Assembly (NCBI GenBank): GCA_951812955.1
Contig: OX638340.1
Span: forward strand, 928,001-992,000
From: an uncultured Gemmatimonadota bacterium
Lineage (GTDB): Bacteria > JAAXHH01
Length of the DNA stretch: 64,000 bases
Reading direction: 5' to 3'
Each line of letters starts with the position of its first letter. The stretch's first letter is position 1. The position numbers and the translations under genes were made by a program. Under the pieces are notes generated by a model, which saw nothing but the letters and a program-made list of their open reading frames with translations, did no database searches and was not told the DNA's origin. This document shows, in pieces, positions 14,384 through 60,486 of this stretch.

Positions 14384-14575
14384 AAACGGCCGGTACCTTC
14401 GAGGGGATTAGATCCCGGGGTATCGGGCCGAGCGAAATCCTCGTCCCGACACTTTAAATATACGGCCGGCGGCCAGGGGTGTCAAGCGGTGGGGACGGAC
14501 CGGAACCTGGGTGACTTCATGGTACGAACAGGTGGATTCACCCACCCTGAAACCTGGTTGGGGAGCACTGGATAA

Positions 14576-24238: not shown

Positions 24239-25072
24239 TTAGCTGCCGGGTTCCCAGAGTGGAACGTAACCCGCCCGTTCGACGACGGCCTGACCCTCGT
24301 CGCTCAGTATCCAATCGACGAAGGACTTGATGGCGCCACGCGGCGAATGGGCGATGTAGAAATACAGGTACCTGTTCAGAGGATAGGTGCCGTCCCGCAC
24401 GGTGGCGGCCGTGGGAAACACACCGTTGATGCTGCAGGGCACAGTCCCCTCGCCAGATCGGATCCCTCCGTATCCGATCGCGTTGGGCCAGCGCGCCACG
24501 GTCTCGACCACGGCCCTGGAAGTGGGCACGATCCGCGCTTGCGGAGTAAAATCCAACTCCTGAAGCACGAATTGGTCGAAATACACGCGCGTGCCCGAGT
24601 TCGGGGGACGGTTTACCACGAGGATAGGTGCTTGCGGTCCATTAACCTGGCGCCAGTTATCGATCTTTCCCGAGAAAATCGCCCTGACCTGGTCGATGGA
24701 GAGATCGCGAACGGTATTCTCGCGATGGACATATATGCTCAGCGCGTCCCGTGCTGTCAGAATGCTCATGCCGAGCGAACCGCGCTTCTCCAGCAACCGC
24801 TTGACTTCATCGGCAAGCATGGTCCGCGAGGCTGCCCCAATATCGGTTTTCCCGGAGATCAACGACTCGATGCCAAAACGGCTGCTTCCGCTTTCGGTTT
24901 CGATGAACACCCCGGGGTGGGCGTCCATGTATGCGAACGCCCACTGCTGCACCAACCGGTTCATCGTGGTCGACCCGGTGATTTTGAATCGTACGGGTCC
25001 ATCCATCACGGGCGGCGCCGCGATACCGCACGATAAAAGAAACAGGCCCGCTATCCCAATGAGTCGCTTCAT
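24239..25072 (-). CDS. PstS-family periplasmic substrate-binding protein (phosphate/oxyanion-binding-like); an orphan with no adjacent permease or ATPase
   Basis: Signal peptide/lipobox-like N-terminus (LLSCG); GSTTM...SGSSRFGIESL...DIGAASR motifs typical of the PstS family. Confidence 0.62.
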   Translation of the reverse strand: MKRLIGIAGLFLLSCGIAAPPVMDGPVRFKITGSTTMNRLVQQWAFAYMDAHPGVFIETESGSSRFGIESLISGKTDIGAASRTMLADEVKRLLEKRGSLGMSILTARDALSIYVHRENTVRDLSIDQVRAIFSGKIDNWRQVNGPQAPILVVNRPPNSGTRVYFDQFVLQELDFTPQARIVPTSRAVVETVARWPNAIGYGGIRSGEGTVPCSINGVFPTAATVRDGTYPLNRYLYFYIAHSPRGAIKSFVDWILSDEGQAVVERAGYVPLWEPGS

Positions 25073-31300: not shown

Positions 31301-31370
31301 CGCCCCGCGCGCATGATCAGTGGGAGAACGCCCGCCACCCGCGGCGCCTGCATCACCGGCGAAAGGAGGG

Positions 31371-32252
31371 ATGATGCAATCGCAGAAGGCAGATGAGATC
31401 AACGTGGACGACCGGGACTGGCGCGCGTTGACCCGGGGCGAGCGTATCCGGATGATCGAAGAGGAGGGCTATCTGATCATACCGGACTGGATCCCGCCCG
31501 GCTATCTGGCGGAACTGAAAGCGGAATGCAGAAAACTCGAAACGGTCGGACGGGACTACAGCGAAAAGCAACGGGGCTGCAGGGATCCCCACCTGAGCAG
31601 CCGGAAACTGGCCGAACTCATCGCCTACGAACCCACTGTCGCATTCCTGGAAGCGTTGTTCGGCGACCGACTCGTTTTTATTCACTATACCTACGACCGG
31701 TCCGAGCCCGGCACCCCTGGCATCAGTCTACATACCGACGGTCAGCCCTACGGATCCAAGATATTCGGTTACGAAGGGAGTTGTCCCATCACCGTGCGGG
31801 TACTCTACTATCTCGACGACCTGACGATGGACGTATCACCTTTCCGGGTGGTTCCAAGGTCCCATCTCTGCATGCACGCGGACGCCCATCCGTACAAAAG
31901 GTACGACGGGCATCCCGAAGAGGTCGTCGTACCGTGCACCGCGGGTTCGGCGCTGTTTCTCAACCACCGGACGTTTCACGGCACCCTGCCCAACAGGGGA
32001 AACCGCTCGCGCGCCATGCTTGCGGTGGCTTACCGACCGGCCTGGGCCGGTCCGATCGTGGACGTTGCGCCGCGGGACCCGGCTGACCTGGAACGGATGC
32101 CCGATTCCGTCCGTCCCTTCCTGGGCGACCCGAGCATGCGATCTTACGAGTTCGGTGTTGGCAACAAACCCGAGGGGATGTCGGCCGGCGCGCCGGGGAT
32201 GAACCCAAGCAGGTGGGAAAGCCCGCGTGAGGGACGCGCGCGGAAAGCGTAA
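31371..32252 (+). CDS. PhyH family Fe(II)/2OG dioxygenase
   Basis: PhyH-like core with the His-x-Asp...His triad context. An AGGAGG Shine-Dalgarno lies immediately upstream of the ATGATG start. Confidence 0.68.
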   Translation: MMQSQKADEINVDDRDWRALTRGERIRMIEEEGYLIIPDWIPPGYLAELKAECRKLETVGRDYSEKQRGCRDPHLSSRKLAELIAYEPTVAFLEALFGDRLVFIHYTYDRSEPGTPGISLHTDGQPYGSKIFGYEGSCPITVRVLYYLDDLTMDVSPFRVVPRSHLCMHADAHPYKRYDGHPEEVVVPCTAGSALFLNHRTFHGTLPNRGNRSRAMLAVAYRPAWAGPIVDVAPRDPADLERMPDSVRPFLGDPSMRSYEFGVGNKPEGMSAGAPGMNPSRWESPREGRARKA

Positions 32253-35329: not shown

Positions 35330-36190
35330 GTGGCGGTGGAAACGAACACGGACCTGGACCGATACGAGACTACGGGATTTGTGATTCTGAAGGGATTCTA
35401 TCCCGACACGGTCGTAGCGGCGGCCCGGGACGCCGCGGCCGAGCTCGTCGAACGGTTCGCGAAACGGCTTATGTCGTCGGGCACGGTCTCCCGGGATCAT
35501 GCCGAGGCATCGTTTGAAACGCGCCTGGCCCGGCTCTGTGAGGATGCCCCGGACGAAGCGCCCCACATATTTCGTAAGGAACTCCACCTGGCGGGTATGT
35601 ACGACGTGTTTTTCTACCCGCCCCTGCTCGATATCGTGGAATCCCTGATGGGCGAGGAACTTCGTCTTTATCCCAACTATTCCATCCGTCCCAAGCTGCC
35701 CGACCACGCCCCCACGCTCGTCCTCTGGCACCAGGACGGCGGGTATACCTACAAGGTCCACCGAGACGGGGACCACAGCGCGGAGACGGTCGATGCCCTG
35801 CGCATGATCAACGTATGGTCGCCGCTGGTCCCCGCCCGCGAGGACAACGGCTGCATGCAATTCATCCCCGGCACTCACCGAATCGGCATGGCCCGGCACG
35901 AAGACCGCGAATTCTACCTCGAGATATCGCAGGAGGACCTGGCGCCCTACGTGGACCAGGCCGTGTCCATCGAACTCGATCCGGGCGACATCGTCCTCTT
36001 CCACAACATGCTCTACCACCAGGGTCTGCCCAATCGCACCGACCAGGTAAGGTGGAGCATGGACTGGCGCTATCAGGACGCAAGGCAGTCCACGCTGCGC
36101 AGTACGCGGGGCCATCTTGCCCGCAGCCGCCAGTGTCCCGATGAGGTAGTACGTGACGCCAATGACTGGACCAGCCGTGTTTTTCAGTAG
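35330..36190 (+). CDS. PhyH family Fe(II)/2OG dioxygenase
   Basis: PhyH-like core (WHQDGGY...H...). GTG start with GGAG Shine-Dalgarno. The stop is followed by a 2x direct repeat of cggccgcgcagact. Confidence 0.72.
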   Translation: MAVETNTDLDRYETTGFVILKGFYPDTVVAAARDAAAELVERFAKRLMSSGTVSRDHAEASFETRLARLCEDAPDEAPHIFRKELHLAGMYDVFFYPPLLDIVESLMGEELRLYPNYSIRPKLPDHAPTLVLWHQDGGYTYKVHRDGDHSAETVDALRMINVWSPLVPAREDNGCMQFIPGTHRIGMARHEDREFYLEISQEDLAPYVDQAVSIELDPGDIVLFHNMLYHQGLPNRTDQVRWSMDWRYQDARQSTLRSTRGHLARSRQCPDEVVRDANDWTSRVFQ

Positions 36191-47229: not shown

Positions 47230-47469
47230 AGGGATTGAGTCCGGGGGAGGCCACAACGCGCGCGCGAAGTGCTCCCCCGGACCGTTGCAGGATATGATCC
47301 GTATGGCCAAAGATTATGTAAGTATGCTGTACGACCTCGCACGCCCATAATCACGTAAAACAATGATTGTTTACGAGATTATCCCGGTTTCTCCGACTAT
47401 ACATTTCAACATGCACTTCACTTCCGGTTTCGCCGCGGCGCAGGTATGTATGGTTGAGGGTCCTCGATT

Positions 47470-47790
47470 ATGGAACTCGCCCACCTGTTGTTAACGCCGG
47501 CCACGCTATTGACGGCCTTCATCTTCTTCTGGAATCAGGCAAAGACCGGAAGGGACGAACTCCGGCGGGAACTCAATACGGATATCGGGGAATTTAAAGA
47601 GGAATTGAAGGAGGAAATCATGGCCTTTCGCCGGGAAGTCGCCGCGGTCCGCGACGAAATGAAGGCCGAGATGAGGGAGGAAATCTCCCCCCTGCGGACG
47701 GAAGTGGCCGCCATCCGTACGGAAATGCACGACATGAATGGTCGCCTCGGACGTGTCGAAGGTCTGCTCAGAACGTCGGACGCCGGCTGA
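47470..47790 (+). CDS. Small membrane-anchored coiled-coil protein of unknown function
   Basis: One N-terminal TM helix then a charged heptad-like region (EFKEELKEEIMAFRREVAAVRDEMKAEMREEI). Its stop lies within a 2x 20-bp tandem duplication. Lower-GC context. Confidence 0.4.
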   Translation: MELAHLLLTPATLLTAFIFFWNQAKTGRDELRRELNTDIGEFKEELKEEIMAFRREVAAVRDEMKAEMREEISPLRTEVAAIRTEMHDMNGRLGRVEGLLRTSDAG

Positions 47791-47813
47791 TTTCATCGGA
47801 CGTCGGCTGATTT
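47776..47813 (+). repeat. Tandem duplication (period 20) of the stop-containing 3' end of the small protein: tcggacg(c/t)cggctgattt x2
   Basis: Read from the sequence. Confidence 0.85.
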
Positions 47814-47975
47814 AAGCGGGCGGTCCGGGTAGTACGCGCGGTCCGGGCTGTCCAGGCGGTCCGTGTAAACCTCTCCTGCGGTTCGTTCGTCGTGCGCCAG
47901 TTTACCTTCCATCCTGCTCCTGTCAGACAGAACGTCCGCAATCATACGATTCTTCATCTGTCGTATACGTAGTCT

Positions 47976-48003
47976 TTGACTAAGTCCCTCCGTTTTCTAT
48001 ATT
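47976..48003 (+). promoter_or_regulatory. Near-consensus sigma70 promoter: TTGACT, 16-nt spacer, TATATT, upstream of the tandem PhyH genes
   Basis: Read from the sequence in an AT-rich intergenic region. Confidence 0.45.
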
Positions 48004-48039
48004 CCTAAACAAGATATCTACTCATCCAGCAACGCCGGA

Positions 48040-48990
48040 ATGGGCTGTTTCCGTTTTGAGGCGACTGGATACCCGGTTTATTACGCAATGCGCCTGGAGA
48101 CCGCCATGGCCATGTTCGGCGACCCTGAAGCGTTCGTCATGATGAGCGAACGCGAGAAGTATCTCTACGATCTCCAGGGGTTCCTCGTGGTGCGCGACCT
48201 GCTTTCCACCGATGAGGTCCGGGCACTGAACGATGCCCTGGACGCCAATCCGGACCGGACCGCCGAACACGGACCGGGCGGCGCGCTGGACGGCACGCCA
48301 CTGGCCGGACCATATTCGCAATACATCCACTACGAGGGCATGCTGACCTGGGACCGGCCCTGGTGCCAGCCCTTCCGCGAACTCCTCGCCCACCCGAAGC
48401 TGATCCCCTATCTCAACACCATGATGGGACGAGGCTGGAAACTGGATCACAATATCGACGTGCTCACTTCGAAACCGGGCGCCCAGGGTACGCCCTTCCA
48501 TGGCAACAGCACGGGTACGTTCGCCGGTTCGACCTATTACACGTACGACGACGGCCGGATGCGCAGCGGCCTGATCGTCTGCCAGTTCTACCTGACCGAC
48601 GTGAATCCGGGAGATGGCGGGCTCACCGTGATTCCCGGCAGTCACAAGGCCAATTTTCCCATGCCGGGATACGTCCGCAATTACGAGGACCACCAGGAGA
48701 TCTTCCATCATATCGCCGTCAAGGCCGGCGACCTGGTCATCTTCAACGAGGCGACGACGCACGGTGCCTTGCCGTGGAAGGGAGTGGGCGAGCGCCGCTG
48801 CGTGCTCCACCGGTACATCCCGAAATACATGCACTACGATGGCGGAGTCTACGAAACGCGCATGCCCGAATGGACGCATGAGCTCACCGATGCCCAGCGG
48901 GCCGTGCTGGAACCACCGTACATCTACAACCGCCCCCTGATCGAGGACGACGGCGAATCGATCGCGCGTCCCCGCAGGGAAGGCATCTGA
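48040..48990 (+). CDS. PhyH family Fe(II)/2OG dioxygenase, tandem paralog 1; the true start is possibly at 48103 or 48139
   Basis: Roughly 60% identical to the next gene (YLYDLQGF, WDRPWC, NPGDGGL, VIPGSHK, FNEATTHG motifs). Confidence 0.75.
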   Translation: MGCFRFEATGYPVYYAMRLETAMAMFGDPEAFVMMSEREKYLYDLQGFLVVRDLLSTDEVRALNDALDANPDRTAEHGPGGALDGTPLAGPYSQYIHYEGMLTWDRPWCQPFRELLAHPKLIPYLNTMMGRGWKLDHNIDVLTSKPGAQGTPFHGNSTGTFAGSTYYTYDDGRMRSGLIVCQFYLTDVNPGDGGLTVIPGSHKANFPMPGYVRNYEDHQEIFHHIAVKAGDLVIFNEATTHGALPWKGVGERRCVLHRYIPKYMHYDGGVYETRMPEWTHELTDAQRAVLEPPYIYNRPLIEDDGESIARPRREGI

Positions 48991-49042
48991 ATCCAACCGG
49001 CACGGGAAGGCCCCGTTCTCCGGCTGCACGGGATCTAAACGC

Positions 49043-49975
49043 GTGTCCGGGCCTACTTCCGACTACCCCGCCGACTACTTGCTACATGCGAAAGTGCAGA
49101 CCGGTATGAACCCGACATCCGAATCCTTCGCCACCATGGCGCCCCATGAGCAGTACCTCTTCGATCTGCAGGGGTTTATCGTGGTGCGCAATGCCCTTGC
49201 GCCCGAACAGGTCGATGCCCTGAACGCGGCGCTGGACGCCAATCACGACAAACGTAAGGAAGACGTGGTCACCCAGACGAGCGAGGCGCTGAAGGGCAAG
49301 CAGTACCGCGGTCTCTACGACGGCATGCTGACGTGGGATCGGCCCTGGTGCCTGCCCTTTCGCGAAGTGCTTGCCAATCCGAAGATCATACCGTACCTGA
49401 ACACGCTGCTGGGCCGGGGGTGGAAGCTGGACCACGATCCGTTCATCTACACATCGAGCGTGGGGACCGAGGGCCTGAACCTCCACGGTTACGGACTGGC
49501 CGAGTTCAACGGTTCCCGGTTCTACCACTACCAGAACGGCGCCATGCGTTGCGGATTGATCAACTGCCAGTACCAGCTGAACGACGTGAACCCTGGCGAC
49601 GGCGGGCTGTGCGTCATCCCGGGCAGCCACAAGGCGAATTTCACCCTGCCCGGCGACATTTCCCGTTACGAAGCCCACCAGGAGATCGTCCGCCACGTGT
49701 CCATGAAAGCGGGCGACCTGGTCATCTTCAACGAGGCGACGACCCACGGGACGCTGCCCTGGAGGGGCGAAGGCGAACGTCGCTCTCTGTTCTACCGGTA
49801 TACCCCCAAGTACATGCATTACACCGGCGGCGTATACGAAACCGGCCTGCCGGAGTGGACGAGAGAGCTTACGGACGCCCAGCGCGCCGTGCTCGAACCG
49901 CCCTATGTCTATCAACGGCCGATGATCGACGACGACGGACAGACGCTGTCGACCCCGCGGCGCGAAGGAGAGTGA
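49043..49975 (+). CDS. PhyH family Fe(II)/2OG dioxygenase, tandem paralog 2; the start is possibly at 49106 or 49136
   Basis: Paralog of the preceding gene with the same motif set. Confidence 0.75.
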   Translation: MSGPTSDYPADYLLHAKVQTGMNPTSESFATMAPHEQYLFDLQGFIVVRNALAPEQVDALNAALDANHDKRKEDVVTQTSEALKGKQYRGLYDGMLTWDRPWCLPFREVLANPKIIPYLNTLLGRGWKLDHDPFIYTSSVGTEGLNLHGYGLAEFNGSRFYHYQNGAMRCGLINCQYQLNDVNPGDGGLCVIPGSHKANFTLPGDISRYEAHQEIVRHVSMKAGDLVIFNEATTHGTLPWRGEGERRSLFYRYTPKYMHYTGGVYETGLPEWTRELTDAQRAVLEPPYVYQRPMIDDDGQTLSTPRREGE

Positions 49976-49985
49976 AGGAAGCCAA

Positions 49986-51620
49986 ATGACTGGAAACGAA
50001 GCTATTGCGAAGATCCTGAAAGCCGAGGGGCTGGACTGGTTCAGCTGTTTTCCGCATCACCCGCTCATCGATGCCTGTGCGATCGAGGGCATGCGTCCCA
50101 TTCTTTGCCGCCAGGAACGGGCGGGTGTGAATATCGCCGATGGATTCAGCCGGATCCGGAACGGGAATACCATAGGAGTATTCATGATGCAGATGGGCCC
50201 GGGCGCGGAGAACGCCTTTGGCGGCGTCGCCCAGGCCTACGCGGATTCGGTGCCCATCCTCCTGTTGCCCGGCGGTCCACCGCGATCCCGCACGGGCGCC
50301 GGTCTGGCCTTCGAATCTATGGAGAACTACCGCGGCATCACCAAGTGGGTATCGAACATCAACTCGGCCGCACGTATACCGGAGATGATGGGACGGGCAT
50401 ACAGCCTGCTGAAACAGGGCAAGCCGGGACCGGTCATGTTGGAAATCCCCGGGGACGTGGGAGAGGAGGAGATACCGGACGAGGCCTTTGACTATACCCC
50501 TGTGAAACCTTTCAAGAGCGGCGCCGCTCCCGAGGACGTGCGAGATCTCGTGTCTGCGCTGCTCAAGTCGGACTGTCCGGTAATCAGCGCCGGCCAGGGC
50601 GTGCTGTACGCCGAGGCTACGGAAACGTTGATTGAATTCGCGGAATGGACCAAGACCCCGGTCATGACCACGCTGGCCGGCAAGAGCGCGTTCCCGGAAA
50701 CCCACCCCCTGTCCCTGGGCACCGGCGCCGCCTCCCACTCCCTGATGGTGGCGGAATACCTCAAGAAAACAGATTTCTTCTTCGGCATCGGTACGAGCAT
50801 GACCTCCGGGTTCAAGTCGGAGGTGCCGGCGGACGCGGCGCTCGCACAGTGTGTCATCGGCCATGGGGATATCAACAGGGAGCACCGCATCGACTACGGG
50901 GCTGTGGGGGATGCGGGTGTCGTGCTGCGGCAGATGGTCGAGGAAGCAAAACGCCAACTCGGAGGCCGTCCCCGAACCGACGAGCGCGGCGACATCGTGG
51001 AAATCGCCCGGCTTAAGAAGATCTGGCTGGCCGAATGGGAACCGCAATTCCAATCGGACGAGGTCCCATTGAGTCCTTACCGCGTATTTCGTGAGATCGC
51101 CGGGGTGGTGGATGGCAGACACACAATCATTACCCACGACTCCGGTTATCCCAGGGAGCAGCTCGCGCCTTTCTGGGAAACGGTGACGCCGAGAAGCTAC
51201 ATCGGCTGGGGCGCTTCCACGCAGTTGGGATACGGACTCGGACTGGCGATCGGCGCAAAGATCGCCGACCCGGAGAAGCAGGTCGTCAACATCATGGGCG
51301 ACGCGGCATTCGGCATGTCGGGACTGGACGTGGAGACCGCCGTGCGGTCGGAGATCCCCATAATTACTGTGGTACTAAACAACGGGGTCATGACCCATTA
51401 CGATCACCACATGGCCTACGCTTCGGAGCGGTGGGGCAGCAACCGGTTGGGCGGTGACTACGCCGCAGTGGGCGCCGGCCTGGGCGCCTATGCCGAGAAA
51501 GTGACAGAACCGGAACAAATCGCTCCGGCCATCCGGCGGGCCGTCGAGGCCAATCTCGAAGGCAGGCCGGCGGTCATCGAGACGATCACCAAGGTGGAAG
51601 AACACACGTCGAGATATTGA
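49986..51620 (+). CDS. Thiamine-pyrophosphate-dependent enzyme of the acetolactate synthase / sulfoacetaldehyde acetyltransferase / benzoylformate decarboxylase superfamily
   Basis: Three-domain TPP enzyme architecture with a GDAAFGMSGLD...NNG TPP-binding motif. Confidence 0.8.
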   Translation: MTGNEAIAKILKAEGLDWFSCFPHHPLIDACAIEGMRPILCRQERAGVNIADGFSRIRNGNTIGVFMMQMGPGAENAFGGVAQAYADSVPILLLPGGPPRSRTGAGLAFESMENYRGITKWVSNINSAARIPEMMGRAYSLLKQGKPGPVMLEIPGDVGEEEIPDEAFDYTPVKPFKSGAAPEDVRDLVSALLKSDCPVISAGQGVLYAEATETLIEFAEWTKTPVMTTLAGKSAFPETHPLSLGTGAASHSLMVAEYLKKTDFFFGIGTSMTSGFKSEVPADAALAQCVIGHGDINREHRIDYGAVGDAGVVLRQMVEEAKRQLGGRPRTDERGDIVEIARLKKIWLAEWEPQFQSDEVPLSPYRVFREIAGVVDGRHTIITHDSGYPREQLAPFWETVTPRSYIGWGASTQLGYGLGLAIGAKIADPEKQVVNIMGDAAFGMSGLDVETAVRSEIPIITVVLNNGVMTHYDHHMAYASERWGSNRLGGDYAAVGAGLGAYAEKVTEPEQIAPAIRRAVEANLEGRPAVIETITKVEEHTSRY

Positions 51621-51721
51621 GCACAATACGAAGACGCGATGATGGTGAAGTGAATGCGATGCGGACGTACGCGTAAATTACAGTTCGCCGAAGTTTTCAG
51701 GTGGAATTCCACCGGAGCGCC

Positions 51722-53161
51722 ATGCCCAGGATCCTGATCGGCACCTTTTTCCAGGAAACCAACGATTTCCATCCCAACGATACGGTCTACGAAGATTTCG
51801 GTATCTCGCGGGGCGAAGAGATGCTGGAGGAACCGAGCGGCGTGGTCGGGGGTGCCGTAGATACACTCGCCGCCCGGCCAGGCATGGAAATCGTGCCTAC
51901 CTACAGCGCCGCGATGGGGGCGGGGGGCACGATAACGCAGGCGTGTTTCGAGCGTACCACGTCGGAATTGCTTGACGCAATAGCCCGGGAGAGATCCGGG
52001 ACCGACGGGGTGTACCTGAATCTCCACGGCGCAATGGCCGCGGAAGTCGAAAAAGACCCGGAGGGGTTCGTTCTGCAGGAAGTACGGCGTATTGTAGGGC
52101 CTCACGTGCCCGTGGTCGCCTCCTTCGACATGCACGGCACGATCACCCGGCGCATGCTGTCCCACATGGATGGGTGCAGCATCCTGCATACCTATCCACA
52201 CATCGACTGGTACGAGACGGGCGCCAGGGCCGCCGGGGTACTGCTGCGTATACTCGACGGAGCGCGGCCGGTTATAGGAACCGTGTACACGCCCACCATG
52301 GTTCGTGGCGACGAACTCAAGACCGCCTCCGGGGTCCACGGCACGTTCATCCGGTACCTGGAGCGCCTGGAAGAGCGTAATGACGTCCTCGCCGGAGGCA
52401 TCATGCTCGGACATCCGCCGACGGACTGTCCGGAGCAGGGTTCTCGCGTCGTCGTGATTACGGACGGGAACCGGGACCTGGCGGAACGTGAAGCGTTGCA
52501 TATCGGCCGGAGCTTCTGGAACATGCGGTCTCACATGCAGTGCGTGCTGCACAGCGTGGAAGAAGGCATCCGGATCGCGGCGAATGCCGCGGGAACGGTT
52601 GTGTTCGCCGACGCCGCCGACGCCACCAGTTCCGGCGCGCCGGGCACCAGCAATACCATGCTGAAGGGGTTCCTCGAAAGCGACTACAGGGGGAGCGTAC
52701 TGTTCCCCATCCGTGACGACCCCGCCGTAGAGCGGGCCATGGAAGCGGGTGTCGGCCAGACGATTACTGTTCCCCTCGGCGGTACGCTTGACCCACGCTT
52801 CACCCCCGTGGCGGTTACCGCGACGGTGGAGGTACTGGGCCGGCGGGACGATACACCGGTCGCTGTGCTGAAATGCCGAAATATCACGATCTTTCTCGCG
52901 GCTTCCGGCCCCCTGCTGTGCGACCGTTGGATGTATCCCGCCTTCGGGCAGGACCCGAAAAACTTCGACGTCGTCGTCAAGAAACTGCCCCACACGCCGG
53001 ATGAGTGGTACGACGACTGGGCGGAGCGTACCATAACCATCGATTCCCCCGGCGCCGCGAGTCCGAACATTCCCACGCTCGGCCACCGGTTCGTCCCCCG
53101 GCCGATCTATCCCCTCGACCCCGCTATGACCTTCACGCCGGAAGTGGAGGTGTACGAATAA
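51722..53161 (+). CDS. M81 family metallopeptidase (MlrC-like; DUF1485/DUF1446)
   Basis: N-terminus MPRILIGTFFQETNDFHP matches the MlrC N-terminal pattern; length about 480 aa. GGAG Shine-Dalgarno upstream. Confidence 0.65.
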   Translation: MPRILIGTFFQETNDFHPNDTVYEDFGISRGEEMLEEPSGVVGGAVDTLAARPGMEIVPTYSAAMGAGGTITQACFERTTSELLDAIARERSGTDGVYLNLHGAMAAEVEKDPEGFVLQEVRRIVGPHVPVVASFDMHGTITRRMLSHMDGCSILHTYPHIDWYETGARAAGVLLRILDGARPVIGTVYTPTMVRGDELKTASGVHGTFIRYLERLEERNDVLAGGIMLGHPPTDCPEQGSRVVVITDGNRDLAEREALHIGRSFWNMRSHMQCVLHSVEEGIRIAANAAGTVVFADAADATSSGAPGTSNTMLKGFLESDYRGSVLFPIRDDPAVERAMEAGVGQTITVPLGGTLDPRFTPVAVTATVEVLGRRDDTPVAVLKCRNITIFLAASGPLLCDRWMYPAFGQDPKNFDVVVKKLPHTPDEWYDDWAERTITIDSPGAASPNIPTLGHRFVPRPIYPLDPAMTFTPEVEVYE

Positions 53162-53279
53162 ACCCGCGCGGCTGTCCTCCCGTACCGGTACTTCCCGAAG
53201 GGTCATTGACGGCCGGACCTGACCGGAGCGTTGGCCAGCGTATCGGCAGTTTCCTTCCCTTTATCCTCCCGGGTGTTGC

Positions 53280-54212
53280 ATGAACCGGCACGTTACCAGC
53301 GGCCGCTGGGGCCTGGGGCTTGTCCTGAGCCTGTTCACGATTTTCGTGTGGGGCGGGCTGCCCATCGTCCTGAAAATCATGCTGATCAGCCTGGACGCGT
53401 TCACGATGACCTGGTACCGTTTCGTCGTCGCGGCCGTGCTGATGGCGCTGATCGTGCAACGGCAAGGTCATTTTCCCCTGATCCGTCAGCTGCGGGGCGG
53501 TTATTTGCTGGTCTTCCTCGCGGCGGTTATGGGCTTCAGTTGCGCGTACGTATTCTATCCCCAGAGCCTGCAGTACATCTCGCCCAGCGCCGCCCAGGTA
53601 GTCAACCAGATCTCGCTGCTGTTCCTCCTGCTGGGCGCCATGCTGCTGTTCAAAGAGCGGATGACGCGTATACAGGTATTCGGACTCATGCTGCTCACGG
53701 GCGGCATCGTCCTGTTCTTCAACGAGCAGTTGTCGGAACTTCTGTCCGGGGACAGCGCCATGATCCCGGGCATTCTCTGGGTAACCGTCGCGGCGCTCGC
53801 GCTCTCCACGTACACGCTGACCCAGAAGCAACTGCTACAGGTCCTGCCCACTTCCGTCATCCTGTTCCTGATCTACTCGGCCGGATCAATCCTGATCCTA
53901 CCCTTCGTTCGGTTCGACTCGCTGCTGGCGCAGGACTCCTCTCAGATGATCCTGCTGAACGTATCGGCGGTGATTTCCCTCGTGGCATTCGTAACCCTGG
54001 TGGAGTCCCTGAAACACCTCGAGGTCTTCAGAGTCAGCATGGTCCTGTCGGCCGCGCCCCTGGTTACCGTCGTCGACATGATGATAGCCGCTCCGCTCGT
54101 ACCCGGCCTGCTCCAGCCGGAAAACCTCAACTTCCTCAGCGTATCCGGCGCCGTGCTGGTCGTCGTCGGTTCCATACTCGGTAACCTGAGGCGGACAGCG
54201 AAAACCAAGTGA
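53280..54212 (+). CDS. DMT superfamily (EamA-like) transporter
   Basis: 10-TM duplicated EamA architecture. Confidence 0.75.
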   Translation: MNRHVTSGRWGLGLVLSLFTIFVWGGLPIVLKIMLISLDAFTMTWYRFVVAAVLMALIVQRQGHFPLIRQLRGGYLLVFLAAVMGFSCAYVFYPQSLQYISPSAAQVVNQISLLFLLLGAMLLFKERMTRIQVFGLMLLTGGIVLFFNEQLSELLSGDSAMIPGILWVTVAALALSTYTLTQKQLLQVLPTSVILFLIYSAGSILILPFVRFDSLLAQDSSQMILLNVSAVISLVAFVTLVESLKHLEVFRVSMVLSAAPLVTVVDMMIAAPLVPGLLQPENLNFLSVSGAVLVVVGSILGNLRRTAKTK

Positions 54213-54294
54213 GCGCTGGCGCATTCGTCCTGAAGCGGGTTTACTGAAGATCCACGCAACAGGAATTGGCGGAACGGGATCTGGCGGAAGGATT

Positions 54295-54810
54295 ATGACA
54301 ATGAGACCACTCGTGGTCATGGGTTTACGGACCCTGGCTAATCTGGACGCGAAAGAAACCATGTACGAGCAGATCGACCGGAACGAAATCCGGGCGACGG
54401 GGCGGTTCGCAGGGGATCACCTGGAGACCATTGCATCGGGGGGGTTCGCCCTCGGCATCCTGTCCAGCCACAGCGTTGCGCGCATCGAGCGGGTGATCGA
54501 TCACCTGGGATGGTCCCACCTGTTTCGGTCGGATCATCTGATCTCTTCGGATCCACTGGTCCGGAAAGACGCCTCGAACTGGGAGGGATGGCGCAGGGAA
54601 TACCAGGCGCGCGGGCTTTCGCTCCACACGGTGGTCGATATCGGGGAAACGCTGATCAGGAATCTCGCCGGGTCGAGTGCATTCGACGAAATAGACAAGT
54701 ACTACATCACCGATGACGCGAGCGTGCGTATCGAAGGAGCGACACGCATAACGGCCCTGGACCGAACGCTGGCTTATCGACAGGCGTCCCGGTCATCACA
54801 GGACCGGTGA
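54295..54810 (+). CDS. Hypothetical protein, possibly a degenerate HAD-like hydrolase lacking the N-terminal DxD nucleophile motif
   Basis: Weak resemblance of the C-terminal half to HAD motifs II-IV (GILSSHS, VRKD, VVDIGETLIRNL). The N-terminus has no DxDG. The stop-containing 3' end is duplicated (ccggtgaacaac x2, period 20). Confidence 0.35.
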   Translation: MTMRPLVVMGLRTLANLDAKETMYEQIDRNEIRATGRFAGDHLETIASGGFALGILSSHSVARIERVIDHLGWSHLFRSDHLISSDPLVRKDASNWEGWRREYQARGLSLHTVVDIGETLIRNLAGSSAFDEIDKYYITDDASVRIEGATRITALDRTLAYRQASRSSQDR

Positions 54811-54893
54811 ACAACCCCGGGCGCCGGTGAACAACGACACGGGCCAGGCAAAAAAGGTTGACATTACCTGGCAGGCTTCGCGGAACCTGGCGA

Positions 54894-54983
54894 GTCGTTT
54901 AGCCGCACGTAGTCGTTGGGGCGCGGGTCGTTTAGCCGTACGTAGTGTTTGTGACACGAGTCGTTTAGCCGCACGTAGTCGTT
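54894..54983. repeat. Three copies of the 24-bp unit gtcgtttagccg(c/t)acgtagt(c/g)(g/t)tt, separated by 9-bp spacers (period 33)
   Basis: Read from the sequence in a convergent intergenic region downstream of the M20 gene. Too short and too few units to be a CRISPR array; no cas genes. Confidence 0.85.
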
Positions 54984-54994
54984 TTGGCGCGCGG

Positions 54995-56320
54995 CTACTG
55001 GTTGGGCTGTAGTGCTCTTGCGTTCAAAAACTCCAGCACCAGGTGGGTCATCGCGCGCATGCCCACCGTGACCGATTCGCTGTCCGCCGTCATGGTCGGG
55101 GTATGCAGGCCGCCGGAGGGCTGGCCGGGCCTGGTGACGCCGAGCCGATAGAAGAAACCTGGAATAACGTTGGAGAAATAGGCGAAATCCTCGCCGCCCA
55201 TCGTCGGGGGCAGCTCCAGCACCTGGTCTACGCCGGGCGCTCCGGCCAGGTAACCGGCCATTTCGCGGGACAGTTCGGGGTTGTTGATCACGGAAGGCGT
55301 GCCGCGGTCGTAGTTCAGTTCGAAGGCACCGCCATAGGCCCCGGTAATGCCTTCCAGGATGGTATTCATCCGGCTTTCCACCCGGTCCCGGACATCGGGA
55401 TTGTAGGTGCGCACCGTTCCCTCCAGGTGGACTTCCCGCGGTATGATGTTGAAGCGTTCTCCGCCGCGGAAGATACCCACGGTGACCACGCTGGGTTCCA
55501 GCGGCGACAGGGTGCGGGACCGGATCGTCTGCAGGGCGAGTACGATTTCGGACGCCATAACGATGGGATCGATGCCCTCTTCGGGACGGGCGCCATGAGC
55601 CTGTTTGCCCCGTACCTTGATATAGAAATGGTCCACGGCGGCCATGGCCGGACCAATGGTATAACCGACCGTGCCCACCTCGAGGGAAGGCAGTGCGTGG
55701 AGGCCGAAGATAGCCTCGGGCGCGGGGTCTTCGAGGACTTTCTCCCGCACCATCAGGTCCGCTCCACCCTCTTCGCCCGGGGGAGGCCCTTCCTCTGCCG
55801 GCTGGAATATGAATTTGACCGTGCCCGGCAGGTCGGCCTTCATATCGGCCAGCACGGAAGCCACGCCCAGTTGAACGGCGGTATGCACGTCGTGGCCGCA
55901 GGCGTGCATGACGCCCACTTCCTTCCCGAGATAGGACGTCCGCACGGTCGATTTGAAGGGTAGCACCGTCTCCTCCGTCACCGGCAGGGCGTCCATGTCC
56001 GCCCGGATGGCTACCACCGGACCGGGCCGTCCGCCTTTCAACACACCGACCACGCCCGTATGGGCGACACCGGTCTGAATCTCGATGCCCAGTGCGGTGA
56101 GATGCTCCGCGACCAGTTCCGCAGTCTTGAATTCCCGATTGCCCAGTTCCGGGTTCTGGTGGATATGCTCGCGCTTGCGGATGGCTTCCGCCCGGTGCTT
56201 TTCCACGAGCGCGGTCACGCTATCCTGTTGGGCAACCGCGTTTCCCGTCAACACGTGGAGACCCAGACCGAGTGCCGTGACCGACATGGCCTTCAGCGCC
56301 CAAATCACGCTTCTTTGCAT
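54995..56320 (-). CDS. Secreted M20D family amidohydrolase (N-acyl-amino acid amidohydrolase / hippurate hydrolase-like)
   Basis: Signal peptide and M20 metal-binding motifs (HACGHDVH, GGED). Confidence 0.8.
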   Translation of the reverse strand: MQRSVIWALKAMSVTALGLGLHVLTGNAVAQQDSVTALVEKHRAEAIRKREHIHQNPELGNREFKTAELVAEHLTALGIEIQTGVAHTGVVGVLKGGRPGPVVAIRADMDALPVTEETVLPFKSTVRTSYLGKEVGVMHACGHDVHTAVQLGVASVLADMKADLPGTVKFIFQPAEEGPPPGEEGGADLMVREKVLEDPAPEAIFGLHALPSLEVGTVGYTIGPAMAAVDHFYIKVRGKQAHGARPEEGIDPIVMASEIVLALQTIRSRTLSPLEPSVVTVGIFRGGERFNIIPREVHLEGTVRTYNPDVRDRVESRMNTILEGITGAYGGAFELNYDRGTPSVINNPELSREMAGYLAGAPGVDQVLELPPTMGGEDFAYFSNVIPGFFYRLGVTRPGQPSGGLHTPTMTADSESVTVGMRAMTHLVLEFLNARALQPNQ

Positions 56321-56329
56321 ACGGTGCGC

Positions 56330-58093
56330 CTACCTTTCCCAGGGAAAAGCGAAGGACGGCCGGTTGGCGTAGCGATCCATGGCCACGCGCAGCCTGCTGC
56401 CGCACCCGGGTTCGAGGGTCACCGAAAAGCTGGCGCCGTCGACCACGGTAGACCCGTTTTCATCACTGACTTCCAGGATCTGGTGTTCACCGTAAGCGCC
56501 GCCCTGGACGGTCACGGTCCGGGGGGACACCTGGTTGGTATTCACCAGCGTAACCACGGCGCTGTCGTCATGGAGTTCCTCCACGAGTGCGGCCACGTCC
56601 TCGGGCATGCCGGGGCGCACCCTGACGGGATCGAAATACCGGAAACGGCAGTGCAGGGGATGGCCGAAGTGCTCCGTGGGTATGCCACCGAGCATGAGCC
56701 GGATCAGGGCGTCCACCTCGGCGGGATTCGTGCCGTTCATGTCGTCCGAAAGGCGGGTATCCGGCGAGGTAAGGTCGTTTCGCAACCGCTCCATTTTCGA
56801 TCGAACCGACGAGATGTCCTCCTGCAGGGCTTCTTCCGGATAGTCCGGGTTCTGCCCTTCCAGGTAAGCGATCCAGCCTTCCATGGGCAGCCGTTCCAGG
56901 TCGCGGCGGTCCATGGACCAGTAGTAGACATGCTCCGCGCCACCAGAGAAGGGTTCGGGCTGGTAGTCGTACCAGCCGTCGTCGCCGTGCATGCGGGGAT
57001 AGAGCGTCTGGCCGTTCTCGACCTTGCTGTGGGCGTTGACCCCGTCGATGACGCCGCGCCAGGTGTCCACGTATTTCTGATCGCCCGTCAGCAGCAGCCC
57101 GTTGCCGAAACTCCAGTGGACGCGGATCAGGAAGTAGGGACGGTGCGCTATTTCCCCGGTCTGGGGCACTATGGTCGAGAATCCCCACCCGTACGCCCCG
57201 CCGTACCATCTTCCGCCGCACTCCCCGCCGATGCTCCCGTCCAGCCCGATATTCGTGGGTATGATGCCGTTGTTCTTCTCGGTCCGTTCCACCCAGGCGT
57301 CCAGGTAGTTCTTCGTCCACTCGCCGTAGGTCTCGTCTCCGTCGATCATGTAGGCGTTCAGCGTCATCGTGGTCACGCCCATGTTCAACGGATGGTCGCC
57401 GGCCACGTCGTTGTAGTCCTTGAAATGAGCGACCATCTCTTCGTAGTTCCGTTCTCCGTGCCCCAGCCTGAAACGGCCCTCGACCTCAATGGAATCGCCG
57501 GCCCAGTCGAGCCCCGTTGCCTTGCGCAACATCGGACCCCGGCTGCCGTTGAACATGCTCTTGATCACGCGGTGCTCGGGGATGTAGTTGTCCGCGATGG
57601 GATCGTTGCCCATGTAGAACCCGCAGAAGCGACGCGTACGGTCGATGAACTTCTTGTCCTGCGGATCGCACAGTCCCTGGAGAAAAAAGGCGGTGAAGCC
57701 CTCACCGTTGTGCATCCAGTCGAACATCGTGGGGAATTCCCTGAAATACATGCCGTCCCGGGCGAATTCGACCTCGGTGGTCTTCGCCTCCGTATACTGC
57801 AGCAGGTGACCGTCCCAGGCCTTCTTATACAATTCGTATACGCGTTCCGAAGCGCCAATCGCATAGAGCTCCGGCCAGTTCGCGAAGTTTTCCGCCGCGT
57901 CGTCCGGTCCGTCGTCACCGCCCCAGCGAGGGACGCACTGCAGGTACCCGCGTTCGTCGAAGTATTGGTCGTAGAACGCTTCCACGGCCTCTTCCTGCTG
58001 TTTGATCAGGTTCAATTCGAGCAAGGCCCAGGATGGAGGCGACATGGGTGACGCGACGCGCAAGCTACGCGCCCCCGTCGAGACGGACGGCAT
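56330..58093 (-). CDS. Uncharacterised 587-aa protein (no family recognised)
   Basis: Normal coding composition (W/Y/D/E/K-rich), in contrast to the antisense ORF. No motifs that I can assign. The start is possibly internal (MSPPSW at 58045). Confidence 0.5.
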   Translation of the reverse strand: MPSVSTGARSLRVASPMSPPSWALLELNLIKQQEEAVEAFYDQYFDERGYLQCVPRWGGDDGPDDAAENFANWPELYAIGASERVYELYKKAWDGHLLQYTEAKTTEVEFARDGMYFREFPTMFDWMHNGEGFTAFFLQGLCDPQDKKFIDRTRRFCGFYMGNDPIADNYIPEHRVIKSMFNGSRGPMLRKATGLDWAGDSIEVEGRFRLGHGERNYEEMVAHFKDYNDVAGDHPLNMGVTTMTLNAYMIDGDETYGEWTKNYLDAWVERTEKNNGIIPTNIGLDGSIGGECGGRWYGGAYGWGFSTIVPQTGEIAHRPYFLIRVHWSFGNGLLLTGDQKYVDTWRGVIDGVNAHSKVENGQTLYPRMHGDDGWYDYQPEPFSGGAEHVYYWSMDRRDLERLPMEGWIAYLEGQNPDYPEEALQEDISSVRSKMERLRNDLTSPDTRLSDDMNGTNPAEVDALIRLMLGGIPTEHFGHPLHCRFRYFDPVRVRPGMPEDVAALVEELHDDSAVVTLVNTNQVSPRTVTVQGGAYGEHQILEVSDENGSTVVDGASFSVTLEPGCGSRLRVAMDRYANRPSFAFPWER

Positions 58094-58177: not shown

Positions 58178-58990
58178 TCAGGAAGTCAGGCCACGACCGT
58201 GCCGCTTGCTACGCTCGGCGCTTTCCCGAATGAATGCGAGCAGGTACTCGACTTCTACGGTCCGTTCCACTTCATCCACAACCGCTTGAACCGCCTGAGA
58301 AACATTGAGCGAAGACCGGTGGAGCAGACGATAGACCTCTTTGAGCGTGCGGATGGCCTCATCGGAGAACCCGCTGCGTTTCAGACCGATGGTGTTGAGT
58401 GATACAGGTTTCAGCGGGTCGTGGGCGTACTTGATGTACGGACAGATGTCCTTGGTAACCATGCCGCCCCCGCTGATGAAAGCGTTGCGGCCAATTCGGA
58501 CGAACTGGTGTACCGCGACGAGTCCGCCGGTTATGGCGAAATCTTCGATTTCCACGTGGCCTCCCAATTGCGTCCCGTTGGCGAGAATCACGCGGTTGCC
58601 GATCACGCAGTCGTGGGCGACGTGCACGTAGGCCATGACCAGGGTATCGCTTCCGATCACCGTCTTCCCCAGGGCGCTGGTCCCGCGGTTCAGCGTGGTG
58701 AATTCGCGGATCGAAGTCCGGTCGCCGATTTCCAGTATGGACTGTTCACCAATGAATTTCTGATCCTGGGGTATGGACCCCACCACGGCTCCGTGATAGA
58801 TCCTGCACTCCGCGCCGATGCGCGTATGGGCGCCGATCAGCGCGCCGGATGCGATCTGCGTACCCGCTCCGATGATCACATTGGGTTCCACGATCGTATA
58901 CGGACCGATGCTGCACCCGGAACCCAACTCCGCGTCAGGATGGACGATGGCTGTCGGATGGACCTTGGTTTCGGTGGTTATGTCCGTCAC
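58178..58990 (-). CDS. lpxA: Acyl-ACP--UDP-N-acetylglucosamine O-acyltransferase LpxA
   Basis: Left-handed beta-helix hexapeptide repeats and an LpxA C-terminal helical domain. Confidence 0.85.
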   Translation of the reverse strand: MTDITTETKVHPTAIVHPDAELGSGCSIGPYTIVEPNVIIGAGTQIASGALIGAHTRIGAECRIYHGAVVGSIPQDQKFIGEQSILEIGDRTSIREFTTLNRGTSALGKTVIGSDTLVMAYVHVAHDCVIGNRVILANGTQLGGHVEIEDFAITGGLVAVHQFVRIGRNAFISGGGMVTKDICPYIKYAHDPLKPVSLNTIGLKRSGFSDEAIRTLKEVYRLLHRSSLNVSQAVQAVVDEVERTVEVEYLLAFIRESAERSKRHGRGLTS

Positions 58991-60486
58991 TGCGGCGTCT
59001 CCTGGACTGCCTGGTCTGCCTGGACTGCCTGGTCTGCCTGGTCTGCCTGGTCTGTCCGGTCTCCCTGTTCTGCCCGGTCTGCCCGGTCCGTAACCATTGC
59101 CATCAGGGTCGCTTCGGCGACGAGTTCATCGTTCACGTATGCCTTCCCTTCCATCTTGCAGGCGTGCATGCGCATTCGTTTCAGTTCCAATTCGAAGCGG
59201 ATCTGGTCGCCGGGTTTTACCAGTCTTCGAAACCTGGCATGATCGATGCCCATGAAATACGCCATTTTGCTCTTCGGTTCTTCAATCGTATTGAGCAGTA
59301 GCAGACCTCCGGCCTGTGCCATGGCCTCAACGATCAGGACGCCCGGCATGACGGGATGGCCAGGGAAGTGGCCCGCGAAAAAGGGCTCGTTGATAGTCAC
59401 GTTCTTGAGCGCTACCACGCGTTTCCCCGGTTCCATCTGGATTACCCGGTCGATGAGCAGAAAGGGATATCGATGGGGGAGAATGCGCAGGATGTCCTCG
59501 ATTTCGAGGACCGCTTCGGGTGCCGGCGCCGGTGAATCCATATTCCCTTTTTCCGGTTTCCTCTTAACGCCCGCATCGCGAATCCTTCGCACGAGCTCGA
59601 CGTTGGCGGAGTGGGAGGACCGCGCTCCGAACACCTGAGCCCTGAGCGGCGCTCCGAGCAGGGCCAGGTCGCCGATCAAGTCGAGCGCCTTGTGCCGGCA
59701 CGGTTCGTTGTCGAAGCGCAGCGGCCGGGTGCCCACAATTCCGTTCTCGCCGATGACCACCCTGTCCTCCACGCCGAACAGATCCTTCAACTCATCCAGT
59801 TCCTCCTCGGACAGGTCCATGTCCGCGATGACCACCGCGCTTTCCAGGCTGCCGCCCTTGATCAGCCCCTTTTCACGCAGGGCCTTGATGTCACTGAGGA
59901 AGGTCCAGGTCCGTGCCGGCGCGAATTCGGTTACGAACTCGTCTTCCAGGGAATAGAGCACGGTGTGCTGGCTGGCGAGATTTGATTTCTGGTAGTCGAC
60001 CATGTAAGTGAGATGGAAATCATCGGAAGGCATGACGACGAGTTCCTTCAACAGGCCGTTTTCCCGCTCCGAATAGAGCACGGGATTTTCCAGTTCCAGG
60101 TATTCCCTGGGCGCGTCTTGTTCGACGATTCCGGCTTCGATCAACGCGTTCACGAAAGGAATGGCGCTGCCGTCGCAAATCGGTGGCTCATCGCCGTCCA
60201 GCTCGATCCGGATGTTGTCCAGTCCCAGGCCCGCGACGGCGGCCAGGACGTGTTCCACGGTGTGTATCCGTACCCCGTCCCGTGCCAGGTTCGTCCCCCT
60301 GGTGGTATCGACCACGTAGTCGATATCCGCAGGGATTTCCAACCGGTCGGGATGGTCGACGCGTATAAACCGGATCCCGTCGTTAACGGTACCCGGCCTG
60401 AAAGTCAGCGTCGCCTGCCCGCCGGTATGCAAGCCTATTCCCTCAACGGATCTGGTGGATCCAATGGTACGTTGATTTTTAAGCAT
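58987..60486 (-). CDS. lpxC-fabZ: Bifunctional UDP-3-O-acyl-GlcNAc deacetylase / 3-hydroxyacyl-ACP dehydratase (LpxC-FabZ fusion)
   Basis: N-terminal LpxC domain (GIGLHTG, HTVEHVLAA) and a C-terminal FabZ hot-dog domain (PHRYPFLLIDRV, FFAGHFP). A 4-nt overlap with lpxA. A repeat-encoded (QAD)n C-terminal tail. Confidence 0.85.
   Translation of the reverse strand: MLKNQRTIGSTRSVEGIGLHTGGQATLTFRPGTVNDGIRFIRVDHPDRLEIPADIDYVVDTTRGTNLARDGVRIHTVEHVLAAVAGLGLDNIRIELDGDEPPICDGSAIPFVNALIEAGIVEQDAPREYLELENPVLYSERENGLLKELVVMPSDDFHLTYMVDYQKSNLASQHTVLYSLEDEFVTEFAPARTWTFLSDIKALREKGLIKGGSLESAVVIADMDLSEEELDELKDLFGVEDRVVIGENGIVGTRPLRFDNEPCRHKALDLIGDLALLGAPLRAQVFGARSSHSANVELVRRIRDAGVKRKPEKGNMDSPAPAPEAVLEIEDILRILPHRYPFLLIDRVIQMEPGKRVVALKNVTINEPFFAGHFPGHPVMPGVLIVEAMAQAGGLLLLNTIEEPKSKMAYFMGIDHARFRRLVKPGDQIRFELELKRMRMHACKMEGKAYVNDELVAEATLMAMVTDRADRAEQGDRTDQADQADQAVQADQAVQETPQ
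59001..59090 (-). repeat. Ten tandem copies of a 9-bp unit (cctggtctg and variants) encoding the low-complexity DQADQADQAVQADQAVQ tail of LpxC-FabZ
   Basis: Read from the sequence; in-frame (3-codon) repeat. Confidence 0.85.

Follow-up and report, generated by a model that had tools for sequence, protein, structure and literature searches.

Do the oxygenases, hydrolases, thiamine enzyme and permease encoded side by side in an uncultured Gemmatimonadota bacterium belong to a single pathway, and if so, on what kind of compound might it act? The eight genes in question lie at positions 48,040 to 58,093 of the window, by which we mean the whole stretch of 64,000 nucleotides that was analyzed (contig OX638340.1, positions 928,001 to 992,000 of the forward strand). 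They had been regarded, from the sequence alone, as one cluster (the sequence-only reading). We find that six of them are co-oriented on the plus strand and have the appearance of an operon (unit 1), and to this extent the earlier view stands; the other two, encoding an M20 amidohydrolase and a DUF8034 protein, lie in a convergent unit on the minus strand (unit 2). The reading we favor, to which we give an even chance, is that unit 1 is a real and probably functional accessory operon, specific to its clade, through which one imported organic compound is catabolized oxidatively.

All eight open reading frames (ORFs) first described for this region were found at their coordinates in the ORF listing, and profile searches upheld seven of the family assignments. 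The two tandem PhyH proteins, the thiamine pyrophosphate (TPP) enzyme, the M81 protein, the permease of the drug/metabolite transporter (DMT) type and the M20 protein were all confirmed by their profiles and coordinates, and the 587-aa protein by its coordinates and the annotation of its orthologues. The features are as follows.

47976..48003, plus strand: candidate sigma-70-like promoter, TTGACT-16 nt-TATATT, upstream of PhyH1, 10 of 12 matches
~48.0-54.8 kb, plus strand: unit 1, six co-oriented genes, operon-like
48040 (opening of the ORF; probable start 48106) to 48990, plus strand: PhyH1, PF05721, 69.6 bits
49043 (opening of the ORF; probable start 49106) to 49975, plus strand: PhyH2, tandem paralogue, PF05721, 63.1 bits
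49986..51620, plus strand: thiamine diphosphate (ThDP)-dependent enzyme, NCBIfam NF004807 (PRK06154), three TPP domains, 680.9 bits against a cut-off of 607
51701..53161 (probable start 51722), plus strand: M81 (MlrC-like) zinc hydrolase, DUF1485 247.8 bits, MlrC_C 95.3 bits
53280..54212, plus strand: DMT/EamA permease, two EamA repeats, 99.9 bits, about 10 hydrophobic segments
54295..54810, plus strand: conserved 171-aa protein, no Pfam or NCBIfam match at E 0.01
58.1-55.0 kb, minus strand: unit 2, DUF8034 then M20, downstream of a bamA-skp-lpxD-lpxC/fabZ-lpxA run and convergent with unit 1
54995..56320, minus strand: M20D-type amidohydrolase, Peptidase_M20 and M20_dimer domains, TIGR01891 355 bits against a cut-off of 153.75
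56330..58093, minus strand: DUF8034 (PF26099) protein, 587 aa, 84 bp after lpxA and 9 bp before M20
58178..58990, minus strand: lpxA, last recognizable gene of the bamA-skp-lpxD-lpxC/fabZ-lpxA run and border of the finding

Within unit 1 the genes are closely spaced. PhyH2 and the ThDP gene are separated by 10 bp, and this gap is 9-10 bp in every relative from the same clade. The remaining gaps between plus-strand genes are 15-118 bp, and none of the gaps between these genes contains a terminator-like site. A strong promoter had been proposed upstream of PhyH1. A good match to the consensus is indeed present there, but the region holds five promoter-like matches compared with 3.5 ± 1.6 in shuffled sequence. 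Since this is not above the shuffled count, we treat the site as a candidate only. Between it and the PhyH1 start codon we found no Rfam family, no stable leader structure and no riboswitch.

The full arrangement recurs in only about five close lineages (L001/L002, L003/L004, L007, L008 and L091, where the L numbers are our labels for loci), across which the ThDP enzyme is 81-98% identical. The nearest genome records, judged by the ThDP gene, are a chromosome of a metagenome-assembled genome (MAG; OY762445.1, 98%) and the Gemmatimonadetes MAG IRC1_bin_16 (92%). In every one of these lineages the six-gene block is unbroken while both of its borders vary, with an insertion of M78 and DUF6338 genes upstream in L001 and with M20, a dispensable gene, missing from L003/L004. 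Four of the five lineages have all eight genes next to one another. In L003, the most distant, the ThDP enzyme, PhyH1 and M81 are 81, 80 and 77% identical to those of the window, compared with 74% for LpxA and 62% for DsbD. The cluster genes are thus as conserved there as their housekeeping neighbors.

The upstream spacer, between AhpC and PhyH1 (window 47230-48040), contains a 106-aa coiled-coil ORF at 47470-47790 that is also present in L007. In L001/L002 the spacer carries an M78 peptidase gene and a DUF6338 gene (L001 7401-9382), and in L003 it is empty.

Both oxygenases pass the PF05721 gathering cut-off of 22 bits. They are 59% identical over 309 residues, in agreement with the previous estimate of roughly 60%. 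Translation of PhyH1 probably begins at 48106, because its homologues are 289-294 aa long and a GGAG lies 6 nt upstream; homologue lengths likewise place the probable starts of PhyH2 at 49106 and of M81 at 51722. The canonical H-x-D/E ... H triad is absent from both. PhyH1 has H132-G-N ... E215-x3-H219, with R230, and PhyH2 has H-G-Y ... E-x3-H, which is the same variant type. Canonical paralogues read H-T-D, H-Q-D, H-S-D or H-A-D at the alignment position that reads H-G-N in PhyH1 and H-G-Y in PhyH2. H132, E215, H219 and R230 are invariant in the family alignment.

This variant resembles the metal motif of HygX, which is H-x-G ... E-x3-H (PMC13374393). The sequence E215-A-T-T-H219, invariant in 27 family members, aligns with NEALMHG of HygX, although the residue two past the first His is N or Y here and not G. 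The alignment suggests that the relocated Glu of E-x3-H would act as a metal ligand in the PhyH pair, as in HygX. R230 lies about 11 residues past the distal His and does not vary among eight highly diverse PhyH proteins; by analogy it is assigned as the Arg that would bind the C5 carboxylate of 2-oxoglutarate (2OG). The absence of the usual carboxylate might be read as the mark of a halogenase. We consider this unlikely, as the relocated Glu is invariant, as it is in HygX.

HygX (PDB 4XC9, 4XCA, 4XCB and 4ZPI) is the Fe(II)/2OG oxygenase that forms the orthoester in the biosynthesis of hygromycin B. It is the top sequence match of the pair (E about 1e-9), with an identity of just 21-23%, and the top Foldseek match in the PDB (E 3e-15) for an AlphaFold 2 model of PhyH1 with a pLDDT of 79.5. 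The proteins have in common the GSHKANFP and NEAxxHG blocks and the lack of an acidic residue two after the first His. Unlike HygX, the PhyH genes here form a tandem pair, and our scan of the cluster and of most window ORFs with 230 aa or more revealed no glycosyltransferase, aminoglycoside or orthosomycin genes. The closest structural relatives found by Foldseek, HygX, AndA, SptF, OkaE and SnoK/SnoN, are all natural-product tailoring enzymes, and human PHYH is a distant match (E 4.5e-5, 26 bits). The pair belongs to a large environmental family with 577 hits, whose members have no functional name, and an exact-sequence look-up of PhyH1 returned no record. The occurrence of the HygX-type motif in a large symbiont PhyH family is a useful but modest observation.

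The window contains five PhyH genes in 64 kb, the others being at 23402-24232 (minus), 31320-32252 (plus) and 35330-36190 (plus). The first of these has the E-x3-H variant and lacks H-x-D; those at 31320 and 35330 are canonical. PhyH 23402 has a class-III aminotransferase gene (22022-23359) on one side and the gene for a PBP_like_2 binding protein (24239-25072) on the other; a gene for a SulP/STAS sulfate permease (20341-21969) is close by. Comparable abundance has been described in sponge symbionts of the Poribacteria, in which PhyH genes are reported to exceed 1.9% of all genes (Kamke et al. 2014, PMC3909097), although the host here is a member of the Gemmatimonadota. The sole function proposed for them in that study is phosphonate use by phnY/phnZ (PMC3909097). 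This role does not apply here, as there is no adjacent HD phosphohydrolase gene. We found nothing functional in the literature on PhyH proteins of sponge symbionts.

The ThDP enzyme follows directly. The description of it as acetolactate synthase-like holds for its domain architecture but not for its family. It falls well short of the equivalog cut-offs for acetolactate synthase (ALS; 271 versus 538 bits), glyoxylate carboligase (Gcl; 239 versus 791) and sulfoacetaldehyde acetyltransferase (Xsc; 194 versus 676), and of that for 2-hydroxyacyl-CoA lyase (HACL; 172.8 versus 600). The first three of these enzymes share with it the three domains, the ThDP motif and full-length similarity at the 25-30% level. 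The family to which it does belong, NF004807, is labeled 'thiamine pyrophosphate-requiring protein' and has no reaction assigned to it. Glu44, the activating Glu, and the ThDP motif, G438-D-A and N465-N466, are invariant in the family alignment. Kaplun et al. are said to have found in 2008 that E. coli Gcl lacks the canonical activating Glu, which the enzyme here keeps as Glu44. The best PDB match is glyoxylate carboligase (E 1.7e-54), followed by oxalyl-CoA decarboxylase (OXC) and HACL structures (about 1e-43 to 1e-41), and BbmA and CsmA are also among the matches. The enzyme appears to be roughly as far from glyoxylate carboligase as from the OXC/HACL structures.

The M81 protein, which matches 3IUU and 7YLQ in the PDB, has E12, H102, D136, H138 and H160 invariant in its alignment. 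The zinc site of microcystinase MlrC comprises E56, H150, D184, H186 and H208 (PMC12474180), and the spacing of the five residues is almost the same in the two proteins. Since all five are kept, the M81 protein is probably an active hydrolase. It has no hydrophobic N-terminus and is predicted to be cytoplasmic; MlrC is also reported to be cytoplasmic (PMC12474180). Both Pfam domains are shared with MlrC, but the score against the MlrC equivalog is 116 bits against a cut-off of 999. In contrast to MlrC loci, there are no mlrA, mlrB or mlrD neighbors, and the gene adjoins those for the ThDP enzyme and the EamA permease.

The last two genes of unit 1 are less informative. The permease had been called an exporter. 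Its DMT/EamA family and two repeats are clear, but it passes no specific NCBIfam model, and the direction of transport is not readable from sequence, so 'exporter' is an assumption. The 171-aa protein had been taken for a remnant of the haloacid dehalogenase (HAD) family. Its matches to HAD_2 (E 0.04-0.07) and to HAD proteins in the PDB (E 0.03-0.9, with single sequence and profile) are not significant, and motif I, DxD, is missing; where HAD proteins have DxDGT, all six orthologues have an invariant MGLRTL (compared by eye). The gene is present at full length in all the relatives, at 53-95% identity, and is not a decaying fragment. The protein may adopt a fold of HAD type while lacking the catalytic DxD. 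At L007, in a genome 98% identical, the range corresponding to this ORF (14310-14822) contains a stop codon, and the ORF listed there is of 164 aa (14316-14810).

In unit 2 the M20 protein does not reach the CpsA equivalog (346.8 versus 500 bits). Its homologues of solved structure, YxeP, SAPEP and ILR1-like, align only from residue ~40, and lack its N-terminal extension of ~35 residues, MQRSVIWALKAMSVTALGLGLHVLTGNAVA|QQ. Judged by eye, this is probably a signal peptide, and M20 would then be exported. No such extension is present on the PhyH proteins, the ThDP enzyme or M81, so M20 probably occupies a different compartment from theirs. The strand switch, the lack of M20 in L003/L004 and this N-terminus are our reasons for setting unit 2 apart, and it need not share a pathway with unit 1.

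The 587-aa protein had no match in the local copy of Pfam, which presumably does not contain the PF26099 model. However, precomputed annotation places PF26099 on all 120 listed homologues, including one that is 98% identical, and orthologues at 84-89% identity are PF26099/DUF8034. The predicted fold resembles that of carbohydrate-active enzymes, with an (alpha/alpha)6-barrel and a C-terminal beta-sandwich, and the protein appears to be cytoplasmic. Similarity is seen to GH88, GH76, GH105, GH127 and sugar epimerases. This model-based assignment is the first for the family, which is useful but modest; we found nothing functional on DUF8034 in the literature. Four foreign contexts of the family were examined (L092 8001-9764, L093 8001-9749, L177 8001-9764 and L178 8001-9767). 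They include arrays with an ABC importer, of the order SBP_bac_5/permease - Aminotran_5 - DUF8034 - sulfatase - luciferase-like - PhyH - GFO_IDH_MocA - DAO, and a Zixibacteria MAG in which DUF8034 directly follows a PhyH gene. PhyH adjoins DUF8034 in three of the four. These PhyH partners are of mutually unrelated subfamilies, ~22% identical and with canonical H-x-D. The contexts hint at a carbohydrate or sulfated-glycan theme. Within the lpx run upstream, LpxC and FabZ are fused into a single 499-aa ORF with LpxC and FabA-like domains (58987-60486, minus).

How might the products of unit 1 act together? The families, their intact catalytic residues, the gene order and its conservation within the clade are direct observations, and from the known activities of the families a sequence of steps, a chemistry and a kind of substrate can be suggested. 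The DMT permease would carry substrate or product across the membrane, and the M81 protein would hydrolyze an amide bond. Oxidation of unactivated C-H positions by the PhyH pair would introduce a 2-hydroxy or 2-oxo group, after which the ThDP enzyme would carry out cleavage or decarboxylation beside the new carbonyl.

A number of observations weigh against a shared pathway, the principal ones coming from outside the clade. We examined synteny around the ThDP gene at 80 genome loci using tblastn, ORF clustering and profile hidden Markov models (HMMs). Of these loci 78 are distant (48-65% identity), and come from Dehalococcoidia/SAR202, Latescibacterota, Poribacteria, Entotheonella, Acidobacteriota, Spirochaetia and another Gemmatimonadota MAG. 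A second analysis was anchored on M81, at 80 metagenome loci (L094-L173; 40-76% identity). Orthologues of the PhyH pair, M81, EamA, M20 and DUF8034 were found within 10 kb at none of the 78 distant ThDP loci, and neither the ThDP enzyme nor DUF8034 was found at any of the 80 M81 loci. Conservation of gene order had been put forward as a check on the cluster. It is borne out by the block kept in about five Gemmatimonadota lineages, but the association is gone at both sets of distant loci, and outside the narrow clade the check goes largely against the cluster. Moreover, each family has a different habitual partner elsewhere, none of which is in the window. Within the clade, collinearity extends to the flanking genes (DUF5916, DsbD, AhpC and lpx), and recent common descent could by itself account for the synteny. 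Internal promoters are possible, as some gaps in the window, at 100-118 bp, are long enough. Finally, we found no regulator, riboswitch or substrate-binding protein that would hint at a ligand.

The partners found elsewhere are of some interest in themselves. An NHL-repeat gene is present at 20 of the 78 ThDP loci, in 19 of them upstream on the same strand (13 within 250 bp) and in one far downstream on the opposite strand. The NHL-repeat beta-propeller and the PRK06154 ThDP enzyme look like a conserved pair (L009-L054, mostly Dehalococcoidia/SAR202). M81 relatives are usually followed by a gene of the mandelate racemase/muconate lactonizing enzyme (MR/MLE) branch of the enolase superfamily, of which the window has none. 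By phmmer such a gene is present at 37 of the 80 M81 loci and lies directly after M81 in 32, usually on the same strand with a gap of 9-108 bp. The closest non-syntenic M81 relatives have it also (L094, 76% identical, where it is adjacent on the opposite strand, and L095, 61%). M81 and MR/MLE look like a conserved two-gene module. The PhyH homologues examined, at 60-79% identity, are all in other contexts, next to an amidohydrolase gene, SDR and GFO oxidoreductase genes, or heparinase II/III-like, class-V aminotransferase and DHDPS genes.

Some PhyH gene was detected by HMMs within 10 kb at seven of the 78 distant ThDP loci, a frequency compatible with chance in PhyH-rich genomes. It is directly adjacent only in L038, a Latescibacterota chromosome, where a single strand (9016-14380) has a canonical PhyH, a ThDP orthologue (59%), MatE and GFO_IDH_MocA in that order. 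In L104 and L114 a HygX-type PhyH gene lies 1.2-1.9 kb downstream of an M81 homologue. The order in L104 (6579-16084) is sulfatase - M81 homologue - HygX-type PhyH (H-N-G ... E-x3-H) - GFO_IDH_MocA - sulfatase - MR/MLE. L038 and L104/L114 could be independent echoes in other lineages of the coupling in unit 1, but as such they are weak. In L104, M81 and a variant-triad PhyH occur together in what seems to be a sulfated-carbohydrate context. The component families have homologues in Poribacteria, Latescibacterota, Chloroflexota, Dehalococcoidia/SAR202, Entotheonella and similar lineages. We take these to be a typical sponge-symbiont assemblage, and in this sense call the source of the window sponge-type; no record title that was checked names a sponge host.

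Alternative explanations differ in how much of the locus they draw together. That all eight genes serve one pathway for an N-acylated or peptide-like small molecule, in which M81 and M20D act with two hydroxylases, a ThDP enzyme of C-C chemistry and an exporter, is the proposal of the sequence-only reading. Both hydrolase families are confirmed, the relatives of M20D include N-acyl-amino-acid hydrolases (ILR1-like and N-acyl-glutamine aminoacylase), and the eight genes stay together in most of the related lineages. Yet two of them are on the opposite strand, M20 is missing in L003/L004 despite an intact six-gene block, and M20 is probably exported while the other enzymes have no such extension. 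The carbohydrate-enzyme-like fold of DUF8034 is ill-suited to such a scheme, and no relative outside the clade combines these families. The substrate class was drawn solely from the family names of the two hydrolases, and we have not retained it; the pathway as a whole seems to us distinctly unlikely. A bacterial counterpart of alpha-oxidation would involve unit 1 alone. PHYH and HACL1 are the peroxisomal alpha-oxidation pair, in which PHYH 2-hydroxylates an acyl-CoA and HACL1 removes C1 as formyl-CoA. The adjacency of PhyH and an ALS-superfamily ThDP enzyme 10 bp on reproduces this pairing of families and its hydroxylate-then-cleave logic; OXC/HACL structures are among the PDB matches, and one ThDP orthologue at 69% identity lies beside two family-III CoA-transferase genes. 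However, neither of the two proteins here is an orthologue of its counterpart in that pair. The PhyH pair is far from human PHYH, nearest to the sugar-acting HygX and of variant metal motif; the HACL model scores far below its cut-off, with glyoxylate carboligase the better structural match; and no acyl-CoA ligase, CoA-transferase or other CoA-activating enzyme was found in the cluster. Chemically attractive as it is, the analogy fails all tests of membership, and we regard it as very improbable. A variant in which HygX-type PhyH proteins form a large enzyme class of sponge symbionts and, in this clade, a tandem pair of them is coupled to the PRK06154 ThDP enzyme to provide a CoA-independent, alpha-oxidation-like route for a host-derived amide-linked or sugar-derived acid is speculative, and we give it a slim chance.

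Carbohydrates provide a different common theme. The locus might belong to a loosely organized island that deals with glycans of host-derived, sulfated or amino-sugar type, in which DUF8034, the HygX-type oxygenases and M81 act on carbohydrate-derived substrates and the two strands are functionally linked. This is consistent with the glycoside hydrolase- and epimerase-like fold of DUF8034, with its place in other phyla in sulfatase/Aminotran_5/PhyH/GFO_IDH_MocA arrays or adjoining PhyH, and with a PhyH1 homologue (79% identical) beside heparinase II/III-like, Aminotran_5 and DHDPS genes. The two sulfatases around M81 and a HygX-type PhyH in L104 fit as well, as does the oxidation of a sugar by HygX, the nearest characterized relative. 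But the window ORFs that we scanned included neither a sulfatase nor a glycoside hydrolase or sugar transporter, and the foreign PhyH genes next to DUF8034 are of unrelated, canonical subfamilies. In genomes so rich in PhyH (more than 1.9% of genes in Poribacteria, PMC3909097) such adjacency is likely to arise by chance, and the DUF8034 contexts examined number only four. We hold this explanation to be unlikely. We say the same of the view that there is no shared pathway, the genes being independent accessory enzymes left side by side because the few genomes that carry them are closely related. Collinearity does extend into the unrelated flanks, each family keeps other company elsewhere, and five scattered PhyH genes in one window are typical of sponge symbionts (PMC3909097). 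Against this, at least partial co-transcription is suggested by the constant PhyH2-ThDP gap, the uniform orientation of the genes, the lack of terminator-like sites between them and a block that is intact despite its variable borders. Least probable of all is that a small cluster makes or tailors a metabolite for export, by means of HygX-like biosynthetic enzymes, a ThDP carboligase and an EamA exporter. The closest structural relatives of the PhyH pair are all tailoring enzymes, and BbmA and CsmA are among the matches of the ThDP enzyme, but neither the cluster nor the scanned window ORFs yielded an NRPS, PKS, terpene synthase or glycosyltransferase gene. Furthermore, PhyH and ThDP proteins abound in heterotrophic symbionts, in varied settings that look catabolic, with ABC importers, dehydrogenases and sulfatases.

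We thus return to unit 1 as an accessory operon of oxidative catabolism. Because the grouping is kept in close relatives only, we describe it as a lineage-specific accessory cluster and not as a demonstrably new pathway, and the evidence so far supports only an ordinary operon of this kind. Its proteins are new members of known superfamilies. No described pathway of this composition was found, in agreement with the previous assessment; the combination is without a described counterpart, and there is no evidence of a system beyond the narrow lineage. Assignments to microcystin, taurine, phosphonate or ectoine metabolism were rejected, every specific NCBIfam model being far below its cut-off.

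Should the six genes make up a single pathway, this would provide a first reaction for the HygX-type PhyH proteins, the PRK06154 ThDP enzymes and this branch of M81, all of them large unnamed subfamilies with abundant members among sponge and deep-ocean heterotrophs. It would also be a starting point for explaining the many PhyH genes of sponge symbionts, which have posed a question since 2014 (PMC3909097). Were the CoA-independent hydroxylate-then-cleave route correct, part of that expansion would for the first time be explained in functional terms. In practical terms, the locus yields a short list of well-defined, expressible enzymes together with testable classes of substrate.

Two further groups of genes lie near the start of the window. 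The gene at 7505-9199 (minus) encodes a second ThDP-type protein, with POR_N and TPP_enzyme_C domains; it is bordered by genes for two class-V aminotransferases and for an AMP-binding enzyme (within 5738-12518). Genes of futalosine-type menaquinone biosynthesis are present at 57-3725, comprising a UbiD-like gene and two CofH/MqnC-like radical SAM genes.

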